From positions 1 through 64,000 of IMG/VR virus record IMGVR_UViG_3300047476_002043: a stretch of DNA of 64,000 nucleotides. One strand, written 5' to 3'. The notes under the pieces were generated by a model. That model was given only the letters and a program-made list of their open reading frames with translations, did no database searches and was not told the DNA's origin. This document shows positions 5,671-45,881 of this stretch, piece after piece. Position 1 is the first letter of the stretch. Every line of letters begins with the position of its first letter. This DNA is from a virus. Position numbers and translations under genes: made by a program.

Positions 5671-8409
5671 TCAGAACTTGAGCTCGTCAAGATTTTCAGG
5701 AGGTTCATCCGAACCGTCGGTAGGTTGACCGCCGGTGTCGTCCTGCGACTGAGAGGTAGCACCCTGATCGGCAGAACCAGGAGGAGTATCGCTAGGAGTA
5801 CCTTCCGGGGCAGGCTCACCAGAATCACCTGAAGGTGTAGCACCTTGGGTGTTCGGATCGACCGGCTTACTGAGGATATCGAGACTATTGACCATAGCCC
5901 TAAGGTTACGCGCAAACCTTTGTGTTCCTTGGAATTCGGAGAGATCAACATCATCGAGTTCCGGAATGTTAAAGTCGCGATGCATGCCAACAGCATTGAG
6001 GATAGCGCGAGCGCACTTAGCCTTGATGTGTTGACCGATAGCGACGATCATGTCGGAGTCAGTCTTAGCTTCAATCTTGATGATATCGGCATTGAAGATC
6101 TGTTCGATGACTTTGTTGAGGGATTCGAGTTGAGCCATAGTCTCTTCGTATTGCGCTTTATTGAACGCCATGTTCGGAGAGGGCAAAGTGACGTTGATAT
6201 GCTTGATCACTTTTTCGAAGAGTTGGGCCCCTTCTTCAGCGATGATGCTAGGATCTTCGGTATTGACAGCATCAACATCATTCTTGACTGTTTCAGAATC
6301 GTTGAGGATCTGGACGATCTTGTTAGTCAGAGAATAAGAAAGCCTAATGTAAGTTCTGATAAGCTCAGAGGTCTTACGTTGTGTCGGCTTTTGCTTCTCT
6401 CTGACGTTGTTGGCGAAGAACAGATTGTTCGTAGCGATGGATCGAGAGTACTCGTTCTCACTGACCTGGTTGAGCGCAGTGTAAGGAACTGTCGTCATGC
6501 TGATGATCTGTTTGGTGAGGACATCGATCATGTCGGAGTCAGGCTTAACGCTAGCTCCGGCTTGGACTTCCGTCTGAACATCAAACTCGCTAAGGCCCTT
6601 GAGTCCTTTCGGAATGATGGAGATATTCCTGGAGACGATGTCGCGCGCAACGGCCAAAGGATCTGTGCCCCATGCGGGTAGATTCTTTTGCACATACAAC
6701 TCATGCAACGTCTCGGCAACTTGTTCATGGTTGGTAGCTTCATTACCAAGGTTGAACGTAATCTTCTTGCGTTCAGCAGAAGCTTTAAGTGCTGCCATGA
6801 TGTTGGCAACATAAAGCGTAGAGCGCATAGACAGGATGAATGCGCTGTCTTCAAGGAGTGACTTACCTGTACCATCTTTACGATAGTCGAAGGCGTAGTA
6901 AACCATCAGGTCGGCAGGGACAAACACTGTCCGGATCTTCTGTCCGCGCAGGAAGCGCTGGAACATGCAGTTGCTGATGGCTTGGTGCTGACGAATGCTA
7001 ACATTGTCAAGGTCGAACTGACCTAACTCATTAGACAACATACGCTTGACGATGAGGTCGTAGACCAAGTTAGCCGCTTCGTATTTCTGCCCGTTAGTCA
7101 TGCCTTTGGTGGTGAAACCACTAATGACATTGCCACCAGATTTGATGACTTGCTTATTCAAGCAATCATCGGTACTATCCGAAACTTCATCGGCAGTGAT
7201 CGGAGTTCCTTTTTCGTCAACGAGGACGAAGTAGCCGAAGTGGGCCGAAGGATCACCAGGAATAGTGACCGGAATTACCGATTCAGCAGGTAGTGCCATG
7301 ATGCTAGGATGATCACCCTTCTCGAGCGGATCGTCTGTATGCATGACAAGCATTTTGTTGACGCCGTCGCCATAGATGGCCTTATTGATCGCATTCATCG
7401 CTTTGGAAGATTGCTTCTTCGTTGTAGCAATCGGGTCGATGATGTTGCGGTAGTCGTGGCTGACTCCAACTAAGGCTTCAGATCCAGGACTACCTTTCAG
7501 TTGAGAAAAGATCTCTTTGGCGCAAGACTCCAGTCCTGGTTTGATGTCAGCATAAAGAGATTCTTTAGTCAGATTGTCTTTGGGATCGGACATATTGAGG
7601 ATAGCCTCGATTACGCCGCCGGCTTTCTCCATCGCTTCAATGATGAGTCCATCGTTGACAACTTTGTTGACCGTAGCCGTAGCCGGAATGATCGACTCAA
7701 CACCAACAAACAAATCCGATTTCTTGGGAAGGATGCGTTCTGTAGTGAGGATGCGTCTCTTGGGCGAACCGTCAACTGTGATATCTTCGGTAGAGGGTTT
7801 AATCTTTACCTTGGAAGTCTTTCCTGAATTCATCTTCTTGTAGTCGGCAGCTGTAGCCTCAGCCAAGACTCTAACCATGGCTTTAGGAATGACAAGGACC
7901 GGCTGAGAGCCATTCTCAAAGAGGGCGTTACCGATCCATTGACTAACCTTCTCTCCGATACACAGTTCATTGTTGAAGTAGTCGTGGAGTAGTTTACTCA
8001 ATTGACTATTGGTCTCAGGGGAGAAATCCGGAACCTCAACGGAAATATTGAAGCTTTCCGATTGAAGATCGTTGGGAGACATGATCGAAGGAATGAGGAT
8101 AGACTTAGCCTTTCCTAATTCCGGGGTGAGCGATTTGAACGATTTGTTGTTGTTGATCGTCTTCGCTGTGGAGTTGGCGGTTCCTTCGAGAATCTGGCGA
8201 ACTGCGCCGATGCTGTTGTCGTACCGATTACTTTCGGTAACGTACAGCATCATGCCCATTTCAGATTTGCTAAAAGAGCCTGATGGACTATCGCCAACGG
8301 TATCGACGACAGGCTCAGGGCTGAGCTTAGAAATCGCACTGCTGCTAACTCCAAAAAGCGAATAAAGACGTTGTATACCGCGCGTCGCGGTATTGGACCC
8401 TTCAGTCAT
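5671..8409 (-). CDS. Portal protein (phiKZ gp129-like)
   Basis: About 912 aa from MTEGS (GGGAGG RBS). Segments SILIPSIMSP, GYFVLVDEKGTPI and VYYAFDYRKDGTGKSLLE match recalled phiKZ-like portal features; acidic disordered C-tail. Confidence 0.75.
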   Translation of the reverse strand: MTEGSNTATRGIQRLYSLFGVSSSAISKLSPEPVVDTVGDSPSGSFSKSEMGMMLYVTESNRYDNSIGAVRQILEGTANSTAKTINNNKSFKSLTPELGKAKSILIPSIMSPNDLQSESFNISVEVPDFSPETNSQLSKLLHDYFNNELCIGEKVSQWIGNALFENGSQPVLVIPKAMVRVLAEATAADYKKMNSGKTSKVKIKPSTEDITVDGSPKRRILTTERILPKKSDLFVGVESIIPATATVNKVVNDGLIIEAMEKAGGVIEAILNMSDPKDNLTKESLYADIKPGLESCAKEIFSQLKGSPGSEALVGVSHDYRNIIDPIATTKKQSSKAMNAINKAIYGDGVNKMLVMHTDDPLEKGDHPSIMALPAESVIPVTIPGDPSAHFGYFVLVDEKGTPITADEVSDSTDDCLNKQVIKSGGNVISGFTTKGMTNGQKYEAANLVYDLIVKRMLSNELGQFDLDNVSIRQHQAISNCMFQRFLRGQKIRTVFVPADLMVYYAFDYRKDGTGKSLLEDSAFILSMRSTLYVANIMAALKASAERKKITFNLGNEATNHEQVAETLHELYVQKNLPAWGTDPLAVARDIVSRNISIIPKGLKGLSEFDVQTEVQAGASVKPDSDMIDVLTKQIISMTTVPYTALNQVSENEYSRSIATNNLFFANNVREKQKPTQRKTSELIRTYIRLSYSLTNKIVQILNDSETVKNDVDAVNTEDPSIIAEEGAQLFEKVIKHINVTLPSPNMAFNKAQYEETMAQLESLNKVIEQIFNADIIKIEAKTDSDMIVAIGQHIKAKCARAILNAVGMHRDFNIPELDDVDLSEFQGTQRFARNLRAMVNSLDILSKPVDPNTQGATPSGDSGEPAPEGTPSDTPPGSADQGATSQSQDDTGGQPTDGSDEPPENLDELKF

Positions 8410-8522
8410 TATATGACCTCCCAATCTCATTGGTTATGGTAAGCTTACCTGTATTATGATCCCAGGTAACAATTAAAAAATAGCAGCTACCATAATCTTT
8501 GACGCAACCTCAAGGGGAACAA

Positions 8523-11500
8523 ATGCTCAGATACACACTCTCTACTGAAGAGATTTTCAGGTTCTTGAAGTCGTGTACTATCAAGAACTCTCATTTTGCG
8601 GATAGCTCAAGAAAGAAAGCCATCACTACACTCGGGCTTACAACTATCCTTAGGGCAGATTACAAAAATCTGATTCCTTACTACGCATCCATGCAAGGTC
8701 ACTACTTCATCGCTGATGGTTATGGTGGCGTCTTACCGCAAAACCTAATCAGCATCGATACAGTCTCTCCTGATGACGGCATCTCCCATGTTCCTATGGT
8801 GGTTAAATCCGTTGACACAGGTGAATCTATCCTGTTCACTAAAGCCAATCTTTTGGATCATCCTAAGACAGCTTTCGCCTACCGCATAGGTGGCGAAAGC
8901 TTCGACAGTCTTATTGAAAGATACCCGAAGCAGTCTGACCTTATCAAATCCATCCTGCATCCAGTTGACGACATTGAAGTCGCCATCAATGCACCAAACT
9001 ACACTCTCCTGAAATGGGACGAGACTCAACTTGAAGAGCAGGAAGTTGGTAGCATTATCGATGCTGTCTCCAATTTCCTGAAGATGTTCCGCAAGCGCTG
9101 GGACGTTAAAGAGTTCTCGTTCGAGGCATACTACCCGATAACGCAGTGGTCTCTCCTGTGGTCCGTTCTTCCCAATGTCATCTTCGGTCAGAGGATTAAA
9201 AACCTTAAAACCATCAATGCACATAGTGATCACATCTGGGAGTATCTCACCTCTAAAGGTTTGGGCGACTATAGAGCCGTGCTCACACACAGACAACAGA
9301 TGTTCTTGTACAGGAATATCAATTATCTGATCGCTAATCGTGGTAAACAGTCAACTCTTGAGATCTTGGCTAAGGAACTTCTTGATCCTTACCATATCAC
9401 ATTACTTGCCAAGCAGATCCTCCTCAATGCTGAAAATACCGCAGAGCGTGGCTGCCCGATAGTCGATATCGTCAGCATCGATATCAACAAAAGGGACACT
9501 CCAGCAACAGCCAAACTTAACGGCTATGAAGATCTTCAGACCATCATCTCCAGAGAAAGAGAAGGTGGATTGGAGTTTTCTCGTAGCGACATCGTTGTGG
9601 ATAACGGAGGAGAACTCACCTACAACGACACCATAATTGAGTATCAAGATAAGCAGATCGGTCATGCCAACTCTACTTGGTTGCCGACCAAGCTAGTTGA
9701 ACTCAATAGGAAGGATCTGTATACTCAATCGCACAACAACTTCGTTAAGTTCGCCATCCAGACGATCTTCTACAAACAGTCGATTAGTCAAATGGCTTAC
9801 AACATCGTTGTTCATCCGCTCGGAAGTGATCTTGAGGCTAATCTCACCATCGGTGAAGGTATCGCCTTGGCTTACTACTGCTCCAGCAAGATAATGAGCA
9901 AATCCGTTCTCGTCAGGGATAAGAACATTGTCTACTCTGTTGACGACCCGGAAGATCCGGATGATATCCCAGTTGATGTCACCATCAACATTGGTGCATC
10001 CGCTGATCTGATCGGCGAGGCCGTTATCTTGTACGAAGGTACTGAAGACGAAATCACCATAGATGTTGATGAGGGTAACCACCAGAATCTTCGTGGTAAA
10101 CTAATCCGCATCGTAGGATCTCCTACCCAGATCGTTATGGTCGACGACTTGTACAATTCGGCTAAGGCGCTAATAGGTAAAGTTGTGAAGGTCGAAGGTA
10201 ACTTCGTGGAAGTCTCGGAAGACAACTACGCGTCACTGAATAACAAAATCGTGATGGTTGCCGACCCTTACTACATACCCACATCTGCTGTTGTTACCAT
10301 GCCGCTTAAGTCCGGAAGAACGGTCCTCAATGACACCTTCTTCTACCGAGGCAACAAGCTATCCATCAAGCATACGTTGGATGTTGATGCTAGGTTCAAT
10401 CGATTTGGCGATACTTCCAAGGTCGCTCATTCTAGAACAGAACTGCTCGACATCATCGATACGCAATTTGCTGGGATGGAGCATGACCATAACTACGTCA
10501 GATCCAGAGGTGAACAAACCTACCACTTAGCGAATGACCTGTTCTACGATCAGGTCAGAGTTAAGGGAGAAATCCCTCTCAATACTCGGATCAACTACCT
10601 GACGTACAAAGACTGGTTCGACAATAGTGCCATCCTCAACTCGATCATCAATCTGATCGAGAGCTCCAAAGATGTTCGGATGGCGTACACTGATGTTGCT
10701 AACTCCATCATCAAATCGATCATCAATCTTGGAGACAGTAAGAGTACGGTGTTTAGTGATTTCACTAGCGACAACTTTGCGCTTATGCGTCAGCTGTTCA
10801 TCCAGCTGTGTAGCTACAACATCACATTCTTGGACACCGCCGCGAATCTCAGTTCTTATCATCAAGCGACCCCTATGGTTCTCAATGATAAGTCTGTCAG
10901 AGAGCAGTACACCGATTCCAAAATCAGGATCGATCCGTTCATCGTTGATACGACAACGAAGATTGAACGTGAAGGAGTTCTACTCAATACACTCAGACCT
11001 AGCGAAAGAGTTCCTAGAACCATTTCGAGTAGACGCAGAATGAAGAACCCAATCACGAGACGTGAGACAAGCGAAGTTTCAACAACCTCTCGAGTTTATG
11101 ATAGGACTAGAGTTGTTTACGATGGTAAGATTATCGGTAGAGCTGGCTCTATTGGTATGACAACTTTCGTGATCAAGTCGGTATCTCCTGTTATCAACGT
11201 TCCGCCTAAGGTTCTTAGCTCCTCCGCTACTGATCCTGAAATTCTTAGCTCGCTGATGATTGCTCATCTGAATTCTTCTGCATCTGACAGTGAGATCCTC
11301 AGTAATGTCAACATTCGCAAACTCAACAGCACGGCCACTGACGCTGAAATTCTCAGCAACCTCAATGTCTTGGCTTATCGTGGTATTCTCAACAGTAACG
11401 CTACGGACACAGAAATCCTTAGCTTCGCTGGTCACTTCAAACTCAATAGCACACCGTCGGATGCTGAAATCCTCAGTGAACTCGATGAGCATAAAGCACC

Positions 11501-12158
11501 TAACGTTCTCCATGTTACCGTTAGCGATAGTGAGATCATCTCCTTCGTTGGCGTCGGCATGCTGAATAGCGTGGCTGCTGATGGTGAGATCTTGAGTGAC
11601 AAATACGACACTGCGGCAATTCGCAAGGCTCTAACATCTACAACAACAGATAGTGAAATTCTGTCTAGCCTTGACGCTACTGTCAATGGCAAGACTCTGA
11701 ACAGCACTGCTGCTGATGCCGAAATCTTGAGCTCGCTTGGTCTGCCTGTCATTAACGGAACTGCTGCGGATAGTGAGATCCTGTCTACCATGAACTTTGG
11801 TACACTCACCGCTTCGTATCCTGTTCTTAGCGACACAGAGCGCCAACTCGTTGATGAAGCTGGCATTGTACTTACAGATGAACTCGGCAACATCCTCTAC
11901 TCGGATGCTACAGTTGAAACTGAAGTCCTTAGCTACGTTGGCGTTGGTACACCACGTGCCTTCCCGACATCCGATACTGAAATCACTAGCTCGATGGCAC
12001 CCTCTGGCGTCATGAGCGAAACGGTTGATCCTGAAATCCTGTCCGCCCTCCCGTTGGTGGGTACAGGATACCCAACATCAGATTCTGAAATCCTCTCCGT
12101 ACTACTGACGACAACAGTTAGTGGCACTCAGACTGATCCCACACTGATGGAAGGATAA
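8523..12158 (+). CDS. Virion structural/baseplate protein (phiKZ gp128-like) with C-terminal DxEILS repeat extension
   Basis: HIWEYLTSKG...QQMFLYRNINYLIANRGKQSTL and MRQLFIQLCSYNI segments; divergent from the portal gene; AAGGGG RBS. Confidence 0.7.
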   Translation: MLRYTLSTEEIFRFLKSCTIKNSHFADSSRKKAITTLGLTTILRADYKNLIPYYASMQGHYFIADGYGGVLPQNLISIDTVSPDDGISHVPMVVKSVDTGESILFTKANLLDHPKTAFAYRIGGESFDSLIERYPKQSDLIKSILHPVDDIEVAINAPNYTLLKWDETQLEEQEVGSIIDAVSNFLKMFRKRWDVKEFSFEAYYPITQWSLLWSVLPNVIFGQRIKNLKTINAHSDHIWEYLTSKGLGDYRAVLTHRQQMFLYRNINYLIANRGKQSTLEILAKELLDPYHITLLAKQILLNAENTAERGCPIVDIVSIDINKRDTPATAKLNGYEDLQTIISREREGGLEFSRSDIVVDNGGELTYNDTIIEYQDKQIGHANSTWLPTKLVELNRKDLYTQSHNNFVKFAIQTIFYKQSISQMAYNIVVHPLGSDLEANLTIGEGIALAYYCSSKIMSKSVLVRDKNIVYSVDDPEDPDDIPVDVTINIGASADLIGEAVILYEGTEDEITIDVDEGNHQNLRGKLIRIVGSPTQIVMVDDLYNSAKALIGKVVKVEGNFVEVSEDNYASLNNKIVMVADPYYIPTSAVVTMPLKSGRTVLNDTFFYRGNKLSIKHTLDVDARFNRFGDTSKVAHSRTELLDIIDTQFAGMEHDHNYVRSRGEQTYHLANDLFYDQVRVKGEIPLNTRINYLTYKDWFDNSAILNSIINLIESSKDVRMAYTDVANSIIKSIINLGDSKSTVFSDFTSDNFALMRQLFIQLCSYNITFLDTAANLSSYHQATPMVLNDKSVREQYTDSKIRIDPFIVDTTTKIEREGVLLNTLRPSERVPRTISSRRRMKNPITRRETSEVSTTSRVYDRTRVVYDGKIIGRAGSIGMTTFVIKSVSPVINVPPKVLSSSATDPEILSSLMIAHLNSSASDSEILSNVNIRKLNSTATDAEILSNLNVLAYRGILNSNATDTEILSFAGHFKLNSTPSDAEILSELDEHKAPNVLHVTVSDSEIISFVGVGMLNSVAADGEILSDKYDTAAIRKALTSTTTDSEILSSLDATVNGKTLNSTAADAEILSSLGLPVINGTAADSEILSTMNFGTLTASYPVLSDTERQLVDEAGIVLTDELGNILYSDATVETEVLSYVGVGTPRAFPTSDTEITSSMAPSGVMSETVDPEILSALPLVGTGYPTSDSEILSVLLTTTVSGTQTDPTLMEG
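11208..12155 (+). repeat. About 14 degenerate protein repeats (LNSxxxDxEILS)
   Basis: DPEIL, DSEIL, DAEIL, DTEIL, DAEIL, DSEII, DGEIL, DSEIL, DAEIL, DSEIL, ETEVL, DTEIT, DPEIL, DSEIL read directly from the translation. Confidence 0.9.
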
Positions 12159-12165
12159 TCCGTAG

Positions 12166-12198
12166 GCTGCTTCTACCCCGCAACGGGGTAGAAGCAGC
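12166..12198 (+). terminator. Long stem-loop, probable terminator
   Basis: GCTGCTTCTACCCCG-CAA-CGGGGTAGAAGCAGC. Confidence 0.8.
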
Positions 12199-12256
12199 TC
12201 ATTTCATTGAACGATATTTTATAGCTTCAACTTAACTCCTAAGTAAGGAAATAACT

Positions 12257-13027
12257 ATGCGCAGAACCACTGTTGGTACAACTGTTCGCACATTCGATGT
12301 CGACGGCCAAAACCACGTTGATGGATGGTCCTTCTCGCTTACCGGCAACGGTGCTGACGACGCCCTCTTCACCATCGTCAACAGCAGCCTCAACGTTGCT
12401 GCTAACTACGTCCCTCCCGGTCCCAAAACCGTCAATGTTCTCATGAGTAAAGTCGGCGAACCGTCGGTTATTACCAACGTTCCCTTCGTCATTCAGGACC
12501 GTGGCGTTCAGATGGATAGCACTAAAGATCTGACGATCCCTGGTAGCTTCCTTCCCAACTGGACAGCCAACAGCGAAATCCACCTGATGTTCTATCCTGA
12601 TGCTGGCACCGAAATGCTCTTCATGGTTAGCAGCCTCAACGTTGGATACGGTGCCGTTGGTGCCAACACTTCGGGTGACGTCAGTGCGTACTCTCTCAAT
12701 GGAGCTTCCGCTGCTGATCTCCTCAACACCGTTGCCAGCGTCATTGTTCCTAACCAGTGGAACAACCTGACGATCACCAACAACGGCTCCAACCAGACTC
12801 TGTTCAAAGTCAATGGTGTCTCCATTCACCAGGCCGCGACCAACAAGCTTCGCAACCAAGGTACGGACGTTCTTTCTGTCATCAAGGTTGTCACCCCTAG
12901 CAAGAATGTTGTTGTGAGCAACTTCAAAGTTAAAATCAACAACGTCTACTATCTGGCCGAGGAACTCGAGACCGTCGCAGGTTCTCTTGCCACCTCCGGC
13001 GGACCTACCTTCAACGTTCTCAAATAA
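12257..13027 (+). CDS. Virion appendage protein: cadherin-like N-terminus plus beta-rich (LamG/lectin-like) domain; distant paralog of the 40256/41096/41988 genes
   Basis: VDGQNHVDGWSFSLTGNGADDALFTI aligns with VGGQGTANGWTFTLPAGVADNDLFQI; shares the C-terminal G-x-P-T-F-N. Confidence 0.7.
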   Translation: MRRTTVGTTVRTFDVDGQNHVDGWSFSLTGNGADDALFTIVNSSLNVAANYVPPGPKTVNVLMSKVGEPSVITNVPFVIQDRGVQMDSTKDLTIPGSFLPNWTANSEIHLMFYPDAGTEMLFMVSSLNVGYGAVGANTSGDVSAYSLNGASAADLLNTVASVIVPNQWNNLTITNNGSNQTLFKVNGVSIHQAATNKLRNQGTDVLSVIKVVTPSKNVVVSNFKVKINNVYYLAEELETVAGSLATSGGPTFNVLK

Positions 13028-13040
13028 GGGATGAATCTCT

Positions 13041-13898
13041 ATGCCTAGCCCCTTCGCTACCGTGACGAGCACCAATACCCTTCTGGGTATCGTCAACCAG
13101 CTCAGCGCTCAAATGAGCATCCCCCTCACCGTTCGCCACAACACCACCATCAATCACAAGCGCAACAACAACCCTGCGCCTACATTGGCTCCTGGTGAAT
13201 ATCCGAAGCTTCAATACTTCGGCATCGGCATTAACGGTTTCTACAACATCAGTGACACCACGCTGGCTAGCCCGTACATCCCTTCGGAAGAGAACATGGA
13301 CCTTTACCTGCCCATTCCCTTCCGTGTGATCCCGGTGTCTCAGCTTGATGGCAACCCTACACTGTTCGCTTCTCTTGTTGCACCTACAGATCCGGCACTA
13401 CCGACCTACCGCATGCTCACCAAAGAGACTATCGGTGGTGTTGAGTACTACGCCTTCTGGCTCAAGAAGCTCGAATTCCCTAGCAATACCGTTGAGGTTG
13501 ACCGCGTTAACCTTGTCGACGGTAGCTCTTCCGAATACCTCTTCGACAACAGCCACCTCACTCCGGTTCCTGTCAAAACTTCCGGCATCGACACCGAATC
13601 CACAGCGACAAGCAAAGTTGTTGCCAGCGTTACCTGTCTCGCCAAAGTTACAGGTGCTGAAGTTGCTGAGGCCATCAATGTGATGTACGACGGCGACGTC
13701 CGTCTTGCTCGCGTTAGTGAACTCGGTTTCTACAGTGGCATCGAAAAATCGATCTCTCGCTTCGGCTTCACCTACACTGAAGCCATCTACACTCAGCTCG
13801 CTGTACATCGCTGCTCCACAGGCAACGATCTTAGCGATACCGGTACAACCATCTCCGAAACTCTGCACTACGAAAACGGTAGCCAGTATTTCGTGTAA
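13041..13898 (+). CDS. Virion structural protein (phiKZ gp130-like)
   Basis: PKLQYFGIGING, LYLPIPFRV, YRM...YYAFWLKKL and ARVSELGFYSG segments. Confidence 0.65.
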   Translation: MPSPFATVTSTNTLLGIVNQLSAQMSIPLTVRHNTTINHKRNNNPAPTLAPGEYPKLQYFGIGINGFYNISDTTLASPYIPSEENMDLYLPIPFRVIPVSQLDGNPTLFASLVAPTDPALPTYRMLTKETIGGVEYYAFWLKKLEFPSNTVEVDRVNLVDGSSSEYLFDNSHLTPVPVKTSGIDTESTATSKVVASVTCLAKVTGAEVAEAINVMYDGDVRLARVSELGFYSGIEKSISRFGFTYTEAIYTQLAVHRCSTGNDLSDTGTTISETLHYENGSQYFV

Positions 13899-38436: not shown

Positions 38437-39005
38437 TAGATTCTCCTTCGTTGGTTTGGGTGGCTCATAGAGTGATAACGACTACATTTACTTTAAATAT
38501 CTCTAAGGTCTCAATCCTCAATTTAAGAGTTTGTGATGTTCCCTACTCAGTGTTCTTTGTAATTCATTCCTTCGGCTTTAGAGTGTAGAATAACTTTGAG
38601 TTTTAGTTGATGATTTTTGCTTCGCCATCTTTTTTGAAAGATTCTTGATATCGATGAAATCTTACTTTGTTGTTCTACCCTTCCACTCAGGGAAGGGTAT
38701 AAGTTATGATATCTATAAATATTTTTTTAGTTGTTCTCGTGCGCGCTTGCGCGTATAGATACTAGTATTAAGATTACTTAATACTAGTTATATCTTTATT
38801 TATCTATTATTATTTCTTATATAAGAAGAAGTATTTATTAATATCTTCTTATACTCTTTAGAGTATAAGTTTATATTTATAAGTATCTTACGTAGTAAGA
38901 TACTTCCTTCTAGCAACGCAGGCCTGCGCGCGCGTATTTATAGTTGTCAAATTTAATTCCTAAGGGTAGTCATCTTATACCTAACCAATTTCAAGGAGCT
39001 CCCTA
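38437..39005. other. AT-rich, palindrome-dense intergenic region (origin candidate)
   Basis: No ORF; inverted repeats at 38676-38699, 38761-38788, 38814-38827, 38848-38869 and 38881-38905; flanked by GCGCGTA motifs. Confidence 0.6.
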
Positions 39006-39653
39006 ATGCCCGAAGATCCCAAAATCCACACCATCAGAGCTGAGGAAGATCCAACATTACCTCCTCCCGACTTAGCTATGCACTACGTCAACACAGTAAC
39101 CAAAGCCATCTGGCTCTCAGCAGGCATTGATACTGTTGATGACTGGATCCTGATCGTTCCTGCATCAAGAACAGTTACAGTTGGACCTGGCTTAGTTGGT
39201 GGTGGGGCACTGGATGACGATATCAGTATATCCATTGCCGATACCGATGTCACTGAGGGTACCTACCGTAACCCGCTCATGACAGTCAACTCAAGAGGTC
39301 AGGTTACTGATATCTCTGAAGGGCTAACTGGTAATGACGTTGTGCGTCGGTTGACGATCGGTATTGATGCTATCACTGATTCAACTTTCGATATACCGGA
39401 CCTCGTTCGAGTCATCGAAGTTAGAGTCGTCATCACAACGGCCTACGACAACAATGCTCGTATCTCTGTTGGTAAAGCTTCTAGTCCATCGTGCTATGCA
39501 ACGGACAACAAGAGCTACCCAGCTGCGATTGGCACTTATGTCTTTAGGCAGGATGTGTTTAGTGGTCTTGCTGCCGCTCCGCTACGAGTTAGCATCAGTA
39601 ACAATCCTACGGTTGGTGCTGGTGAAGTTGTGATCAAATACCTCCTTCCGTAA
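39006..39653 (+). CDS. Tail fibre-related protein
   Basis: GPGLVGGG...VTEGTY...TVNSRGQVT tail-fibre repeat motif; AAGGAG RBS. Confidence 0.65.
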   Translation: MPEDPKIHTIRAEEDPTLPPPDLAMHYVNTVTKAIWLSAGIDTVDDWILIVPASRTVTVGPGLVGGGALDDDISISIADTDVTEGTYRNPLMTVNSRGQVTDISEGLTGNDVVRRLTIGIDAITDSTFDIPDLVRVIEVRVVITTAYDNNARISVGKASSPSCYATDNKSYPAAIGTYVFRQDVFSGLAAAPLRVSISNNPTVGAGEVVIKYLLP

Positions 39654-39747: not shown

Positions 39748-40233
39748 ATGCCCGATAGTACAGACATCATTGAAAATATCGTCGGTTTCATGACCGCCGA
39801 TGGTAAGGTGTGGCGACTTCCGACTGGAGTGGCTACAACCCTGAAGCAAGTCCTGGCCGTCACGAACGCATCGACAGGTCAGGTTGAATTCGTTACATTG
39901 ACCAAGACTGATCTTGGCTTAGGTAATGTGAGCAATGTTGACCAGTTACCAAGAAGTGCTGAATACGAAATGACAACAGCCGGAGTCGCTTACATGGTAG
40001 TTCAAGCCGACAACGGGAAGACTAAAGGCTGTGACACTGGAGTTGTTCTCGACGACCTCTTACCATTCACTCAAATCGTTGTGTTCAATGAAGCTAACGT
40101 TGACATCCCGTACACGCTTCCCGTTGGATACACCCAGAAAGGCGGTAATACGGATTCTAAAATCCGTAAACACACCTACGCCTCTTTCCAATGGATTTCT
40201 TCAACAGAGCTCCGCATTGCTTGCTCACCTTAA
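39748..40233 (+). CDS. Tail fibre-related protein
   Basis: VTLTKTDLGLGNVSN fibre motif. Confidence 0.6.
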   Translation: MPDSTDIIENIVGFMTADGKVWRLPTGVATTLKQVLAVTNASTGQVEFVTLTKTDLGLGNVSNVDQLPRSAEYEMTTAGVAYMVVQADNGKTKGCDTGVVLDDLLPFTQIVVFNEANVDIPYTLPVGYTQKGGNTDSKIRKHTYASFQWISSTELRIACSP

Positions 40234-40255: not shown

Positions 40256-41080
40256 ATGGCACTAGCCTTAGATGTTGTTCAGAACATCTTGCAATGTTCT
40301 GTTAACGGTCAGGGTACAGCCAACGGCTGGACCTTTAGTTTGCCAGCTGGAGTGCTGGACAATGATCAATTCCAGATTAGTGGAGATTATGTCCAGCCTA
40401 AGTCTACTGGGACATTTAGATGTGCTCATATGGTCGTTAGGATAATGGCTGTTAATGGCGGTACAACGGTTTATGCCAACAGGCTTATAAACGTTGTCGA
40501 CTTTGGTATGAAGATGACTGCCCTAGGGCAGGGAATATCCTACAACAGCACCATCTATTCGTCATTCGCTATTAACAACAGCGGACAAAATTCCTACACC
40601 ATCTCCTTCAATTTCTACATCAATGCGACACCATCGATCAACCATGAGTTTGCTATATTTGGTAAGTCCTCTGCGGCCACTTACTACATGTACATATACG
40701 TCACTACAACATCAGGCGTTATCTTGTACTGCAAAACCGGTGCTGGCGCATCTAACACGATGGTTCTAACGAGCACGAACACATGTAGACGTGGACAATG
40801 GAATCAGTATTCGATATCCATACCAGCTGGATCTTCGGTATTGTGGTCAACTACGCTCAATGGTGTAGTGACTACATCAGGTAGCAATGTGGCATTCCCT
40901 AACTTAAACTTTTCAACAGGCTTAGATTCGTACGGTGGACCATCAGGATCGGGAAACACGATGATCATTTCTGATCTTAAGGTTATTGAGAACTCAACAA
41001 CAAAGATCGATGAAAAACTCCAATCATTGCCGACCAATGCGTCAGCTTTAGGATCACCAACATTCAATCAATCCTCTTAA
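40256..41080 (+). CDS. Appendage paralog A (cadherin-like plus LamG/lectin-like)
   Basis: GQGTANGWTFSLPAGVLDNDQFQISGD; beta-rich C-domain with GQWNQY. Confidence 0.75.
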   Translation: MALALDVVQNILQCSVNGQGTANGWTFSLPAGVLDNDQFQISGDYVQPKSTGTFRCAHMVVRIMAVNGGTTVYANRLINVVDFGMKMTALGQGISYNSTIYSSFAINNSGQNSYTISFNFYINATPSINHEFAIFGKSSAATYYMYIYVTTTSGVILYCKTGAGASNTMVLTSTNTCRRGQWNQYSISIPAGSSVLWSTTLNGVVTTSGSNVAFPNLNFSTGLDSYGGPSGSGNTMIISDLKVIENSTTKIDEKLQSLPTNASALGSPTFNQSS

Positions 41081-41095
41081 CCCCAAGGTAACAAG

Positions 41096-41968
41096 ATGGC
41101 TATCTATGCGACAGCAGGACAGACTATCTTCAACTGCTCAGTTGGTGGACAAGGTACAGCCAACGGCTGGACTTTTACTTTACCTGCTGGAGTTGCAGAT
41201 AATGACCTTTTTCAAATCAGTGGTGATTCCGTCCAGTTCAAATCAGCCACAGCTTACTACTGTAGACAATACGCAGTGCGCGTCAACGGCGTTAATGGTG
41301 GCAACACGACACTGATTGCGCAAACGTTTATCGTTGGCGAGCGTGGGATGCGACCTAACCTAACTAGTGTATCGGGTTTGAGTTATAACTCAGCGATTTA
41401 CAACAGTCTGGTTAATACTAGCGCTTCCATGGACTGTACAGTTGAATTTGCGGCCTACATTCCTCCGGCAGGATCTAACTCGCTGTATTCGATCATGGCA
41501 AGGGGCACATCGTACCTCAGCAGTTCATCACCAACAGGAACTTCACACATTCTAGCGCTGATGATCTCCAACGTAGCGACTCCGACCGTAAGTCTATACG
41601 CACTCAACACGTCAGGAGCCCTCCAATCTTTAATTACTGCATCATCTGCATTCGGCCTTACTCGATCGGTGTGGATTAGTGTCAAGATAACGTGGACAGC
41701 AGCCGCAGCAACAACAGTCACGCTTGATATCAACGGTACTCAAGTTGTTGCTGGTACATCTTCATCCTATCACCTCAATTTACAACAGGCAGCTATTGAT
41801 GGAGGTATGTGGACAGGGTGTTCCAATGGAGTTGCTAACTCAGGTGCTCCTTTGATGGCAGATTTGGTTATCACTCAAAACAGTTACAACGTCCTCACCG
41901 ATCCTATGACGTCCCAACACGCCAACGCCACTCTTGTTGGCACCCCAGTCTTCAACCTACTCAACTAA
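41096..41968 (+). CDS. Appendage paralog B (cadherin-like plus LamG/lectin-like)
   Basis: GQGTANGWTFTLPAGVADNDLFQISGD; WISVKITW...LDING. Confidence 0.75.
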   Translation: MAIYATAGQTIFNCSVGGQGTANGWTFTLPAGVADNDLFQISGDSVQFKSATAYYCRQYAVRVNGVNGGNTTLIAQTFIVGERGMRPNLTSVSGLSYNSAIYNSLVNTSASMDCTVEFAAYIPPAGSNSLYSIMARGTSYLSSSSPTGTSHILALMISNVATPTVSLYALNTSGALQSLITASSAFGLTRSVWISVKITWTAAAATTVTLDINGTQVVAGTSSSYHLNLQQAAIDGGMWTGCSNGVANSGAPLMADLVITQNSYNVLTDPMTSQHANATLVGTPVFNLLN

Positions 41969-41987
41969 CACAACAAGGATCATCATC

Positions 41988-42863
41988 ATGTCTATCTACG
42001 CAACAGCAGGGCAGACTATCTTCAGCTGCAACGTCGGCGGTCAGGGTACAGCCAACGGCTGGACCTTCACCCTTCCGGCAGGCATCCAGGACAACGATAG
42101 CTTCCAGATCAGCGGCGACAACGTTCAATTCAAGTCAGCCATCACCTACTACTGCAAAACCTACAACATCCGTGTTCAGGGCGTTAACGGTTCCAGCTCC
42201 GCGCTCATTCTTCAGCCGATCACCATCAAGGAACGTGGCATGAAGTCTAGCGCTGCTACCGGTACTGGCGTTAGCTACAACTCAACCATCTGCAACGGCT
42301 GGGTCAACTCCAGCGCTACTGTCGATACCACAGTCGAATTCGCATTCTACATCCCGACTACAGCAGCGGCGACTGTCGCTTACTGCCTCTGTGCTAGGAC
42401 ATCTGGTACCAACATCACAACAACTGTTCCAACACAAGCGACAACAGTTCTCTCGATGCTGCTCGATACGACAACCAGTCCTAACGTAACGCTTTACGTC
42501 AGGAACCCCGCCGGTACCTTGATCACAACCCACTCAGCCATCTCTTCCTTCGGCTTGGTTCGTGGTAACTGGTACAGCTGCAAAATCACTTGGTCGGCCG
42601 CTGCCTCCACTGTCGTTACTCTCGACATCAATGGCATTCAGTCCAACGCCACTGCCTCTGCCAACAACCACATCGGCGGAGCCACCATCCAGACTGACGG
42701 TATCGTGTATACCGGAAGCGCCATCTCTAGCGGTACCAACTACCCGATCATCGCTGACCTTCGCGTCATCCAGGCCGGCTTCGGTGTTATCACTGACCCG
42801 ATGACCGCACAGCATTCTCAGGCTACACTTGTGGGTACACCTACCTTCAACCAAGTTAGCTGA
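41988..42863 (+). CDS. Appendage paralog C (cadherin-like plus LamG/lectin-like)
   Basis: MSIYATAGQ start with AAGGA RBS; GNWYSCKITW...LDING. Confidence 0.75.
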   Translation: MSIYATAGQTIFSCNVGGQGTANGWTFTLPAGIQDNDSFQISGDNVQFKSAITYYCKTYNIRVQGVNGSSSALILQPITIKERGMKSSAATGTGVSYNSTICNGWVNSSATVDTTVEFAFYIPTTAAATVAYCLCARTSGTNITTTVPTQATTVLSMLLDTTTSPNVTLYVRNPAGTLITTHSAISSFGLVRGNWYSCKITWSAAASTVVTLDINGIQSNATASANNHIGGATIQTDGIVYTGSAISSGTNYPIIADLRVIQAGFGVITDPMTAQHSQATLVGTPTFNQVS

Positions 42864-42879: not shown

Positions 42880-44916
42880 ATGCGTACGGCCATCTCAACT
42901 GCGATGATTAGCAGCTTCGCGGCTTCGGTGGCCGTGTTGTCTGTAACCTTCGCTGATGAAGATATACTCCTCAATAACTTCAGTGAAACTACTCCTGCGG
43001 TTATTGGGGTAACCTTCGTCGATAACGATGTTCTTAGAGACAATATGGTCGATGAGGTTATGCCTATATCGACCAACTTCGTCGACCCAGATATCTTGTT
43101 GAAGGATGTTGATGAAGAGCCCTTTTACGGGAGTACCGCATTTGTTGATAGTGAAATCTTGCGCACCGATATGCAAGATATCACCAATCCAATAAACGCT
43201 TATTTCGCGGATGGAGACATCCTAGCAAGAAACCTTTCTGAAGCATACCCAGGAACAATAACTGCGGTAGAAACGGATAGTGATGTCTTGCTGAATAACT
43301 GGAACGAAACCATCCTCACGGGATCAACATCTTTTACCGATAGCGATATCCTTTTAACGGGACTCACCGCTTCGTACCCAGCTCTAATATCGGCAGTCAT
43401 TGTCGATGCCGACATCTTACTCGCGAACATGTCCGATGGCGTCGCCACGATCGTCACATCGTTCGCCGATAACGACATCCTTTTACGAAGCCTAGCTGAG
43501 GCCCCAAGTTACGGAAGCGCATCAATAGCCGATAGTGACATTCTCAGCAAAAACTTAACTGAAAGCTACAGCACAGCCATAAGTGCTTCGTTTGCTGATA
43601 GTGATGTTTTGTTGAGAGTGCTTAATGAAGGTCCCGCCTCCGGATCGGCCTCTGTAGTTGATAGTGATGTGATGCGCGCGGCGCTTTCCGAGAGCTACCC
43701 AACATCAGTCTCGACTAGCTTCCCGGATACAGACATCCTGCTCGTTGTTCGCGCAGAAGCCCCAACATCGGGATCCACGAACATACCAGATACGGATATC
43801 CTTCTGATCAATATGCCCTCCGGGCCGACGATTGGAAGTACCAACATCCCAGACTCGGATATGCTGCTTAACCAAGTTACAGCAGGCCCTTCGATCGGTA
43901 GCACCACGATACCTGATAGCGACATTCTTCTCAAATCTCTCACTGCCAACGGCGGCACAACCATCACCACATCCTTCCCAGATAGTGATATCCTTAGAAG
44001 GAGTCTTGCAGCTGAGCCTACCATGGGTAGCACAACCATACCCGATAGTGACATACTACTCAGATCCTTGGTTGAACTCCCACTTACCGGTAGCACCACG
44101 ATTCCAGACACAGACATCCTCAAAGCTAACCTTGTTGAAAATGGTGGCGTAGCCATCTCTACAACATTCGCCGATGCGGATATCCTCAATCGAAATCTCA
44201 CCGCTGGTCCGACAATCGGATCGACTACAATCCCTGATAGCGACATCCTTGTTGCTAACAACACGGCGACCTACCCAGGTGTTGTTACAACCTCGATTCC
44301 CGATGCGGATATACTCCTCAATAACCGAACAGCCGGACCAACTAACGGTTCGACATCTATTCCGGATAGCGATATCTTGCTTAGATCTCTTACCGCTTCT
44401 GGAGGCACACTCGTCACTGCTACGTTCGCTGATGCTGATGTTCTCCTTAGGTCGCTCACAGCCTCCGGTGGTACCCTCATTACAGCCACATTCGCGGATG
44501 CCGACATCTTGCGCATGTCCCTTGCTGAATACTACCCGACACCCGGTTCGACTTCGTTTGCTGATAGTGATGTCTTGCTCAAAGATATGCCTGCGACAAC
44601 AGTTCTCGCCGGTAGTGCAAACTACCCCGATTCTGACATTGAAAGACTCAACCTTACAGGTTCCGCTGGTAACGGTGGGTTGGCAACATTCCCTGACTCC
44701 GACATCGAAAGACGTAATCTCACCGGCTCTGCTGGCAATGGCGGTCTCGCTACCTTCCCGGATAACGATATCGAGAGAAGGAACCTTACAGGTTCCGCTG
44801 GTAACGGTGGGTTGGCTACCTTCCCCGACAGTGATATCGAACTTAAAGTCGCTACTGCTCCTGCCTACCAGGCAACGATCACCGACCTTGATTCGGTCTA
44901 CACTATCAACACATAA
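42880..44916 (+). CDS. Repeat protein made of 30 units of 21-22 aa (xDxDIL)
   Basis: Units such as PDSDILLRSLVELPLTGSTTI counted in the translation. Confidence 0.85.
   Translation: MRTAISTAMISSFAASVAVLSVTFADEDILLNNFSETTPAVIGVTFVDNDVLRDNMVDEVMPISTNFVDPDILLKDVDEEPFYGSTAFVDSEILRTDMQDITNPINAYFADGDILARNLSEAYPGTITAVETDSDVLLNNWNETILTGSTSFTDSDILLTGLTASYPALISAVIVDADILLANMSDGVATIVTSFADNDILLRSLAEAPSYGSASIADSDILSKNLTESYSTAISASFADSDVLLRVLNEGPASGSASVVDSDVMRAALSESYPTSVSTSFPDTDILLVVRAEAPTSGSTNIPDTDILLINMPSGPTIGSTNIPDSDMLLNQVTAGPSIGSTTIPDSDILLKSLTANGGTTITTSFPDSDILRRSLAAEPTMGSTTIPDSDILLRSLVELPLTGSTTIPDTDILKANLVENGGVAISTTFADADILNRNLTAGPTIGSTTIPDSDILVANNTATYPGVVTTSIPDADILLNNRTAGPTNGSTSIPDSDILLRSLTASGGTLVTATFADADVLLRSLTASGGTLITATFADADILRMSLAEYYPTPGSTSFADSDVLLKDMPATTVLAGSANYPDSDIERLNLTGSAGNGGLATFPDSDIERRNLTGSAGNGGLATFPDNDIERRNLTGSAGNGGLATFPDSDIELKVATAPAYQATITDLDSVYTINT
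44626..44841 (+). repeat. 66-nt tandem repeat, 3 copies plus a partial
   Basis: PD(S/N)DIER(L/R)NLTGSAGNGGLATF x3 with synonymous divergence. Confidence 0.9.
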
Positions 44917-45350: not shown

Positions 45351-45881
45351 ATGCGATCGTTCTTAATCCTCCTCATTACACTCATCCTTACCTCGTGTGG
45401 TATGGTTGGGTTCGAAAACAAATCCGCCGTTGCTGCCAGAGAACATACGGCACCTATCAACGATGGTGAGTACGACAATATCACTTCAACCGAAGGTAAG
45501 GTTGTCATTCGTCGGACAACCTCCTATCGTGCATTGATCAAAGCCGATACTCATGTGGACACCAAGCAACAAGGTGTTGATGCATCGAGTAAAGTTGATG
45601 TCAATCTTGCGGTTAGTAAGTACCTCGGGACCATCTTCACTGGAGGAGCTGGTTCGGCTATGATGGCCCTCGATGCTTTGGTTGCTAAGCCTAGCGATGC
45701 ACTTACTTCGGAGGAAGCTCTGGCTCTTGCCGTTTCTGCCAATAAGAAAAACGGCGGGGTTCAGCCTGGTAAGGAGGAGATCCTTGCTGCTGTTGAAAAG
45801 TATTTACCATCGGCTTCTACGGATAAAGCTAAAGAAGCAGCCATGGCGCTTATCAACGACTTGAAATCCAAAAAGGAATAA
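45351..45881 (+). CDS. Lipoprotein
   Basis: Signal peptide MRSFLILLITLILTS-C. Confidence 0.75.
   Translation: MRSFLILLITLILTSCGMVGFENKSAVAAREHTAPINDGEYDNITSTEGKVVIRRTTSYRALIKADTHVDTKQQGVDASSKVDVNLAVSKYLGTIFTGGAGSAMMALDALVAKPSDALTSEEALALAVSANKKNGGVQPGKEEILAAVEKYLPSASTDKAKEAAMALINDLKSKKE

Follow-up and report, generated by a model that had tools for sequence, protein, structure and literature searches.

A predicted baseplate wedge protein with an acidic repeat tail beside a cadherin-lectin gene in an uncultivated phiKZ-like phage

Introduction

This report concerns one locus in the IMG/VR virus record IMGVR_UViG_3300047476_002043, at which a gene for a predicted baseplate wedge protein ends in a long repeat tail and is followed by a gene for a predicted cadherin-lectin protein, called lectin4 here. 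The window that was analysed is the first 64 kilobases (kb; 64,000 nucleotides, nt) of this 82-kb record, which is estimated to be 31% complete, and all positions given below are those of the window unless another locus is named. The source is placed by its proteins as an uncultivated phiKZ-like giant phage (chimallivirus). The sequencing runs that carry its DNA are labelled freshwater, freshwater sediment or aquatic metagenomes. A megablast search of 8499-13898 against GenBank phages returned no match.

The wedge gene and its repeat tail

The locus holds the following features.

8499..11201, plus strand: core of a predicted baseplate wedge protein of the phiKZ gp128 / Goslar gp35 / T4 gp7 class (PDB, profile and PHROG matches)
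11202..12095, plus strand: C-terminal extension with 14 D-x-E-I-L units, in the same open reading frame (ORF) as the wedge core (regular expression on the translation)
11847..11897, plus strand: LVDEAGIVLTDELGNIL, amino acids (aa) 1117-1133, which fits LxDExGxxLxDExGxxL and lies in an irregular 49-aa gap of the array (translation)
12096..12158, plus strand: last 20 residues beyond the final unit, and the stop codon (translation)
12165..12199, plus strand: terminator-like hairpin of 16 pairs (10 G-C) with a loop of 3 and a T-rich tail, seven bases past the wedge stop codon
12219..12243, plus strand: upstream element TTATAG-N12-TCCTAAG, ahead of lectin4
12257..13027, plus strand: lectin4, 256 aa, with a predicted cadherin-like N-domain and a ConA-like/LamG lectin domain (paralogy, profile, AlphaFold2 (AF2) and Foldseek)

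Positions 8499-12158 (plus strand) form one continuous ORF with a product of 1219 aa. When this product was compared with PDB sequences by phmmer, it matched PHIKZ128 (9xqs_C, E 6.5e-26) and also two chains deposited as 'Virion structural protein'. With a profile of the window protein and 11 relatives, the match to PHIKZ128 rose to E 7.9e-72 over positions 3-439, and the product matched phrog_3222 at E 1.2e-67. By tblastn it matched 269 phage records, all at less than 60% identity and with only the N-terminal third to two-fifths covered. Motifs shared with relatives continue up to an LCSYN block near aa 770. These matches identify the product as a baseplate wedge protein, homologous to phiKZ gp128 and of the T4 gp7 class.

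The listed start of the gene is TTG at 8499. An ATG at 8523, nine codons in, is preceded by AGGGG and fits the N-termini of relatives (MIQ.../MVQ...) better; the protein would then have 1211 aa. Judged by these signals, ATG 8523 is more likely to be the true start than TTG 8499.

The C-terminal part of the protein is periodic. The regular expression [DE]x[DE][IVLM]x found 14 units between aa 912 and 1199, with D as the first residue in 13 of them and E at +2 in all 14. The units are spaced by 18, 22 or 23 aa save for one gap of 49 aa, which contains one or two further degenerate units and, besides LVDEAGIVLTDELGNIL, also TLTASYPVLSDTERQ. The repeat tail (aa 902-1219) is about 315 aa long and acidic (net charge -32 for aa 896-1219), and the translation holds no head domain after the array. 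A first-pass annotation of the window, made from the DNA letters alone, had described about 14 LNSxxxDxEILS repeats and an LxDExGxxLxDExGxxL motif at this C-terminus, and both are present as described. It had also read the array as anchored covalently to the virion. This reading stands: the array shares its ORF with the PHIKZ128-like core, and because the homolog of this protein has a known structural place in the virion as a baseplate wedge protein, the array is covalently tied to the virion.

A six-frame scan for runs of at least 4 units at 16-25 aa spacing, which covered the window and 83 stored loci (84 sources), found such arrays in only four places: the wedge tail (as runs of 10 and 4 units), the gene at 42880-44916, and one gene of a related locus (L086, described below). 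No match to the tail was found in GenBank phages (tblastn), and a search of wedge residues 880-1219 against the protein database gave none at E<=0.01 among 8000 candidates. A Pfam scan of the whole wedge product returned nothing at E<=0.1 except a sub-threshold DUF4431 outside the tail, and no RTX or solenoid family.

The fusion in other data sets

The window was assembled from a metagenome, and repeats are easily misassembled. The extension might be a chimera of the assembly, or a low-complexity stretch without coding function that happens to be open. Contigs from four sequencing runs were placed on 10700-13200 (the uncovered parts in two of them, X3 and X4, are uninformative). One contig from a different study (X4) bridges the junction of core and repeats at 10878-11614 with 0 differences. 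Another, from a further study (X5), covers 11037-12171, that is the whole tail with its stop codon, with 23 substitutions and 0 gaps. All but two of these substitutions (21/23) are synonymous; the replacements are N936K and S1092G, the latter on a free x position of a repeat unit. Because of this synonymous excess and the lack of indels, the tail is translated in this frame and under purifying selection, and the number of units is stable between these variants. Junction and tail being spanned without indels in other studies, the synonymous differences, and the confinement of the periodic pattern to four places among the scanned sources make an artefact very improbable.

Contigs of a freshwater metatranscriptome (X6) lie on 11514-11779 (repeat tail), 12250-12413 (5' end of the lectin gene) and 12962-13200 (the spoke gene described below). 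The contig at the lectin gene begins 7 nt before its ATG. These contigs are a hint of expression only, as DNA can occur in RNA libraries.

Lectin4 and the second locus

Some 30 kb further along the window, a second cluster contains genes related to lectin4 and a second repeat array.

38938..38964, plus strand: second copy of the upstream element, TTATAG-N14-TCCTAAG, ahead of the gene at 39006, with which the fibre/lectin/array cluster opens
39748..40233, plus strand: fibre-motif protein, 161 aa (translation)
40256..41080, 41096..41968 and 41988..42863, plus strand: three tandem cadherin-lectin paralogs (translation, paralogy)
42880..44916, plus strand: stand-alone array protein, 678 aa, with 30 DxDIL-type units and a net charge of -64 (regular expression)
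11804..11818, plus strand: 15-nt word in the wedge tail, shared with 43362-43376 and encoding LTASY in frame in both genes (exact repeat list)

By BLASTP, lectin4 is 24% identical over its whole length to the product of 40256-41080 (E 5e-8) and matches that of 41096-41968 at E 3e-6. When the profiles of the two lectin subfamilies were compared by hhalign, they aligned over 252 columns with a probability of 99.6% and E 1.7e-24. Lectin4 is by these scores a true, distant member of the family at 40-42 kb, as had been claimed for the gene behind the wedge.

A profile of the four paralogs matched 166 proteins at E<=1e-3, including about 20 small two-domain relatives and some giant proteins. Its N-domain part (positions ~7-85) matched 27 and 15 stretches in two of the giant proteins (P0069 and P0070), in which Pfam likewise calls Cadherin in 27 and 15 stretches; lectin4 itself has no Pfam Cadherin hit. 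For the C-terminal domain, Laminin_G_3 was matched by lectin4 at E 0.0014, below the cut-off, and by a relative (P0072) at 29.7 bits against a cut-off of 27.6. The AF2 model of lectin4, made from 29 sequences, has a mean predicted local distance difference test score (pLDDT) of 88.4 and a predicted template modelling score (pTM) of 0.83. In Foldseek searches this model resembled LamG/LNS, L-type lectin and carbohydrate-binding-module folds among PDB entries, and ConA-like tail proteins among viral models. The name cadherin-lectin family stands for lectin4 and its paralogs because of these profile hits, the Laminin_G_3 domain of the relative and the predicted folds; glycan binding is a prediction, a fold by itself being no proof of function.

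Botulinum-toxin entries also appeared in the PDB Foldseek results for lectin4. They reflect the generic ConA-like jelly-roll fold and nothing more.

As a single query, the 256-aa lectin4 found only itself in the protein database and no relatives among the IMG/VR loci. Metagenome scans with two lectin alignments (A9 and A10) gave no relatives.

The lectin4 gene is set off from the wedge gene and lies close to the gene behind it, the spoke gene at 13041-13898 beginning 13 nt past its end. The pattern TTATAG-N12/14-TCCTAAG has only the two listed matches in the 64 kb, with 0.01 expected, and two matches occurred in 0 of 100 shuffles. A late promoter or leader element common to both loci is a possible reading. 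A scan for sigma-70 promoters was at chance level (7 found and 6.8 expected). Because the hairpin and the TTATAG...TCCTAAG element precede it, lectin4 forms a separate unit, whose leader resembles that of the second cluster and which has a putative promoter apart from the wedge gene.

In the second cluster, the three paralogs have a near-constant N-domain, while that of lectin4 is divergent. The units of the 678-aa protein have D at +2 in 29 of 30 cases and E in one, with a period of 21-22. All four lectin-type proteins are near neutral, whereas both arrays are very acidic (-32 and -64). Each of the four lectin genes of the record lies in a block that directly abuts an array-bearing gene. The first-pass annotation had noticed this pairing of a repeat array with an adjacent paralog at two loci about 30 kb apart, in DxE and DxD variants, and the pairing is indeed present at both.

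Two further observations belong to this cluster. Identical DNA blocks occur in the tandem paralogs (40306-40335, 41153-41172 and 42038-42067), with 30 nt in common at 40306 and 42038 and 20 nt in all three. The 678-aa gene is followed by an ORF of 176 aa (45351-45881) with, by eye, a signal-peptide and lipobox-like start (…LTSCG…); it may encode a phage lipoprotein.

Kinship of the two arrays

Both repeat types have the pattern h-x-S/T-rich-D-x-[DE]-I-L and a similar period. When D-anchored unit alignments of the DxE and DxD types were compared by hhalign, they matched with a probability of 75.6% and E 2.4e-5, and none of 200 column shuffles reached this score. After the five core columns were removed, 173 of 200 shuffles equalled or beat the real score. 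BLASTP of the wedge tail against the 678-aa protein gave E 0.021, and HMMER unit profiles of one array did not score above shuffles on the other. As far as these comparisons reach, the similarity is confined to the five-residue D-x-[DE]-I-L core. Common descent of the two repeats is plausible; their likeness may instead be convergence on a short structural motif. Of the kinship claimed between the two loci, the part that concerned the lectins held in the profile-profile comparison, and the part that concerned the repeats did not extend beyond the core.

The shared 15-nt word had also been pointed out. It is present and in frame at both places, and for the 1 kb x 2 kb pair alone blastn gives E 0.004. 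At the scale of the window it is a chance-level signal, because ten of the 23 same-strand exact repeats of at least 15 nt are exactly 15 nt long and seven of these ten join unrelated genes. A natural variant carries a synonymous C>T at 11810, inside the word.

The first-pass annotation had taken the two arrays for docking codes of different specificity. In such a scheme, each DxE unit of the wedge tail and each DxD unit of the 678-aa protein would dock a cadherin-lectin paralog. The pairing of lectin and rail would be set by the residue at the third core position (E or D) and by the divergent N-domains, so that a multivalent lectin brush results. The adjacency of array and lectin at both loci of the window and in L086 points this way, as does the near-constant N-domain of three paralogs set against the divergent one of lectin4. 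Cadherin domains use acidic Ca2+ sites, which also counts for such docking. A precedent of this sort comes from the same virus family: for the DUF7941 filament proteins, a published structural study proposes that they chain through a linker that docks onto the N-domain of the neighbour (PMC13742148). Against a code of this kind stand the five-residue core as the only part that the two repeat types have in common, and the charges: strongly acidic arrays and near-neutral lectins offer no obvious complementarity. The fixed unit lengths and conserved linkers within each array are, moreover, as a folded repeat would show. The related loci of other phages, described next, add to the points against it. 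Taken together, a repeat-by-repeat docking code is considered improbable.

Related loci in other phages

An alignment of the three paralogs with two further proteins (P0067 and P0068) found a sole locus in IMG/VR, called L086. Its record is 87 kb long, and the fragment lacks a wedge gene. The locus contains a cadherin-lectin gene with a product of 304 aa (43% identity to the window paralog), and 7 nt behind it an array gene (10922-12106 of that locus) whose 394-aa product has eight YPDADIQRRNL units of 23 aa. The product continues into a C-terminal domain of about 220 aa with a weak Laminin_G_3 hit (E 0.012), for which hhalign showed no relation to the cadherin-lectin profile (probability 0.1). 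In its predicted layout the protein looks like a stalk with a built-in head. By BLASTP it is clearly kin to the 678-aa protein of the window (E 5e-27), and no relation to the wedge tail was detected (E 3.8).

At least two phages thus conserve the lectin-then-DxDI-array module, which strengthens the case for a functional link of lectins and arrays in general. For a docking code, however, L086 is unfavourable in its detail: its units read DxDIQ, and its array has a C-terminal domain of its own.

A 273-aa ORF just upstream of the L086 lectin gene (9167-9988) resembles, by eye and unscored, the window protein of 39748-40233. The order in L086 at 9167-12106, namely fibre-motif protein, cadherin-lectin and DxDI-repeat protein, is the module order of the window.

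The only IMG/VR relative of the lectin4 subfamily (L085) lies in a tail-fibre cluster. Its locus has a lectin without any array, a further point against docking and one that speaks against an obligate link of lectin and array. Beside this lectin relative, at 5581-8934 of L085, there are a 184-aa protein with repeats of about 12 aa (xPxTxQYTPxxF) and four paralogous proteins of 161-170 aa that start MxDLxF, so that small repeats and paralogs are clustered in a tail-fibre region here too.

Wedge tails and the slot behind the wedge gene

The genes on either side of the wedge and lectin genes are the following.

5671..8430, minus strand: portal-like virion protein, the divergent neighbour of the wedge gene (phrog_3004, E 2.8e-99)
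13041..13898, plus strand: spoke protein, phiKZ gp139 / Goslar gp32 / T4 gp8-like (DUF7208; Pfam PF23838, E 5e-32; PDB 9xpg_A, PHIKZ139, E 5.5e-13)

The latter gene had been labelled gp130-like. The label should read gp139-like: PHIKZ139 was the sole PDB chain that its product matched at E<=1, the presence of a gp130 chain in that bank not having been checked.

In phiKZ, each of the six baseplate wedges is composed of gp128 and two gp87 chains, and dimer A of gp139 contacts gp128 as the first unit of a band by which the outer baseplate is fastened to the wedges (PMC13250141). Goslar gp35 is the counterpart and has been equated with T4 gp7 (PMC13742148). In both phages the T4 gp7 equivalent makes up a wedge heterotrimer with two gp6-like chains and extends outward to the first gp139/gp32 spoke dimer (PMC13250141, PMC13742148).

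Relatives of the wedge protein were collected from two sources. In IMG/VR, a pattern scan found 119 relatives, and all locus counts refer to the 80 loci retained from these; ORF lengths at these loci were measured from the first possible start codon and are upper bounds. The protein database gave 64, with lengths of 712-1542 aa, and the sequences of 10 of them were inspected by eye. The closest relative of the wedge protein, P0002, has 754 aa. The synteny of a portal gene on the opposite strand, the wedge gene and a gp139-like gene is widespread: a wedge-like ORF is present at 80/80 loci, a portal-like ORF at 79/80 and a gp139-like ORF at 73/80. The window has both flanks of this synteny, with the portal-like gene divergent upstream and the gp139-like gene downstream.

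The repeat array was found at 0 of the 80 IMG/VR wedge loci and, by eye, in none of the 10 inspected database relatives. A cadherin-lectin ORF within 7 kb was likewise found at 0 of the 80 (hmmsearch with the family profile). The wedge core used as a single query against the IMG/VR loci gave no relatives. Wedge ORFs are 690-800 aa long at most of the 80 loci and 856-1408 aa at ten. The tail beyond the CSYN motif spans 69-449 aa in the 71 of 145 relatives in which the motif was found, the 449 aa of the window being the longest. One homolog of the wedge protein (P0003, 962 aa) has a PA14 domain at its C-terminal end (residues 860-945, 47.5 bits against a cut-off of 24), so the wedge C-terminus can carry a carbohydrate-binding module in other phages; eight other long wedge forms had no Pfam hit. 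In Erwinia phage PhiEaH1, the wedge homolog is annotated with 771 aa, and a 282-aa virion protein lies 17 nt behind it.

What lies between the wedge and spoke genes varies as well. The gp139-like ORF is within 89 nt downstream of the wedge ORF at 57 of the 73 loci, past a gap of 347-2718 nt at 13, and elsewhere at 3. When nine proteins from six of the 13 gapped loci were compared with Pfam, seven were DUF7941 above the cut-off. DUF7941 comprises filament proteins of Goslar and phiKZ, among them Goslar gp33 and gp34. The family is proposed to make up a 'cloud' for host recognition, with its anchor at the peripheral baseplate (PMC13742148). Because the inserts are mostly such proteins, the space behind the wedge gene counts as a known site of accessory adhesion genes, and it holds a different gene here.

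The tail and lectin4 could on this evidence be independent parts. The tail would be a whisker or spacer on the wedge in its own right, acidic and possibly Ca2+-binding, and lectin4 an unrelated receptor-binding cassette in a permissive slot, attached elsewhere, for example to the co-transcribed gp139-like spoke. The slot does take foreign genes in 13 of 80 relatives, lectin4 is 13 nt from the spoke gene yet separated by a hairpin from the wedge gene, L085 shows the lectin family without arrays, and the wedge tail is not demonstrably homologous to the L086 array. Independence leaves unexplained, however, why wedge array and slot lectin, both rare, co-occur here and in 0 of 80 relatives, why the same kind of pairing occurs 30 kb away and in L086, and why the TTATAG...TCCTAAG element is common to both loci of the window. 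That the two are independent is considered somewhat unlikely.

Fold of the repeats

The AF2 model of the wedge tail, whose alignment (A5) adds in effect one sequence, has a mean pLDDT of 47.2; the first six or so units, at pLDDT 58-77, have two strands per unit. The structural neighbours of the model are beta-solenoids: 3p4g (Z 15.0, where values under about 13 for repeat proteins may mean a shared arrangement only and those of the tail are barely above), two-partner-secretion domains, pectate lyases and tailspikes. For the 678-aa protein, the neighbours of an ESM Atlas model (pLDDT 0.61) are ice-nucleation and 'beta strand repeat' proteins; the feature scores from this atlas are all below 0.9 and serve as leads only. 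As a query, the 678-aa protein had no match in GenBank phages (tblastn) or IMG/VR. Because of their fixed unit lengths and solenoid-like models, both arrays are tentatively read as acidic stalks of the beta-solenoid type, in a low-confidence model. Fixed unit lengths and a solenoid-like model agree better with a folded stalk than with loose docking peptides strung together.

A possible adhesion device at the baseplate

The reading favoured here is a lineage-specific remodelling of the junction of inner and peripheral baseplate into an adhesion device; in this general form it is given a probability of about 0.5. In this proposal, the wedge tail would fold into an acidic beta-solenoid-type stalk with about one coil to each unit. 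If a rise of 0.48 nm per coil is assumed, each of the six wedges would bear a stalk of about 7 nm, so that six short acidic stalks would emerge where the spokes leave the inner baseplate. Lectin4 would be a late virion protein that binds host surface glycans. Stalk and lectin together might then form a short baseplate-proximal adhesion device, which would occupy the genomic slot, and perhaps the role, of the DUF7941 filament proteins in other chimalliviruses.

Several points weigh against this proposal. The gene order differs between the loci, with array then lectin at the wedge and lectins then array in the second cluster. The hairpin and the separate promoter-like element show that wedge and lectin genes are not one translational unit. 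The extension was found in no relative, which leaves conservation across species and co-variation with the lectin unsupported by the sequences compared, and L085 has its lectin4-type relative without such an array within 9 kb. For the fold, pLDDT is below 50 for residues 193-340 of the 340 folded, and Z values of about 13-15 in repeat proteins may reflect only a common arrangement. A replacement of DUF7941 proteins is hard to judge: the family (PF25613) gave no hit in lectin4, the wedge protein, the 678-aa protein or the 82-kb record, and because the record is 31% complete its absence from 82 kb says little.

How closely stalk and lectin would be joined is a narrower matter. Some physical attachment of the lectin to the stalk, perhaps via its cadherin-like N-domain, is possible but rather less likely than not. 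A complex prediction of lectin4 (alignment A6) with wedge residues 890-1219 gave ipSAE (interaction prediction score from aligned errors) values of 0.00 in both runs, which is evidence neither way on binding. In the most elaborate form of this idea, the DxE and DxD arrays would be modular rails that mount cadherin-lectin heads, possibly as Ca2+-bridged acidic ladders, with one rail welded to each of the six wedges and one free-standing. The DUF7941 cloud would then be replaced by a programmable multivalent lectin brush in which the specificities of rail and head co-evolve. This form is quite improbable.

The peripheral baseplate is the least understood part of phiKZ-like virions. Both 2026 electron cryo-microscopy papers leave much of it without a model (PMC13250141, PMC13742148). 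Accessory additions at the wedge or its slot have been seen here as PA14 in one relative, as DUF7941 genes in others, and in the window as an orphan acidic repeat stalk with a cadherin-lectin gene. If stalk and lectin do associate, they would offer a compact and testable example of how adhesion diversifies in giant phages, and a first functional handle on a repeat family without a match in the GenBank phage and IMG/VR searches.

Comparison with known systems

Branched phage systems with multiple receptor-binding proteins share an N-terminal anchor domain. They resemble the lectins of the window in that their heads are paralogs whose N-domain is conserved and whose binding domains vary, and differ in that they use a known adaptor domain, where the presumed anchor in the window is a repeat array.

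The closest counterparts of the wedge protein are phiKZ gp128, Goslar gp35 and T4 gp7. The likeness covers the N-terminal half, the motifs up to LCSYN and the same gene order of portal and spoke. The difference lies in the tail past LCSYN, which has 449 aa with 14 DxEIL units in the window and 69-357 aa in relatives. The DUF7941 filament proteins (Goslar gp22/gp23/gp33/gp34, phiKZ gp126/gp127) occupy the same slot beside the wedge gene as lectin4. A published proposal places their anchor at the peripheral baseplate and has them recognise the host through carbohydrate-binding domains (PMC13742148). Lectin4 and the arrays are unlike them, with no Pfam match to DUF7941 and an unrelated fold and repeat chemistry.

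The DxDI(L/Q) array proteins (the 678-aa protein and L086 10922-12106) are like the wedge tail in their periodic D-x-[DE]-I core, with a period of about 18-23 aa, and in being adjacent to a cadherin-lectin gene. They are free-standing, whereas the wedge tail is fused to a baseplate protein. BLASTP gave no firm homology between them and the tail (E 0.021 and 3.8), and the flanks of the core are unrelated. The Ca2+-dependent antifreeze protein 3p4g, ice-nucleation proteins and two-partner-secretion beta-helices resemble the wedge tail in predicted fold class only; no sequence relation of the tail to these stalks was seen, the Pfam scan giving no RTX or other solenoid family.

In the available portions of the literature on chimallivirus cadherin, lectin and baseplate proteins, on carbohydrate binding by the gp7 wedge and on wedge extensions of jumbo phages, such a wedge tail is not described. 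The kinds of component are already known, namely a gp7-class wedge, ConA-like receptor-binding domains and beta-solenoid stalks, and wedge-borne accessory domains, going by the PA14 match, already occur in relatives. What sets the window apart is the fusion of this repeat family to a wedge protein, which is unique among the relatives examined.

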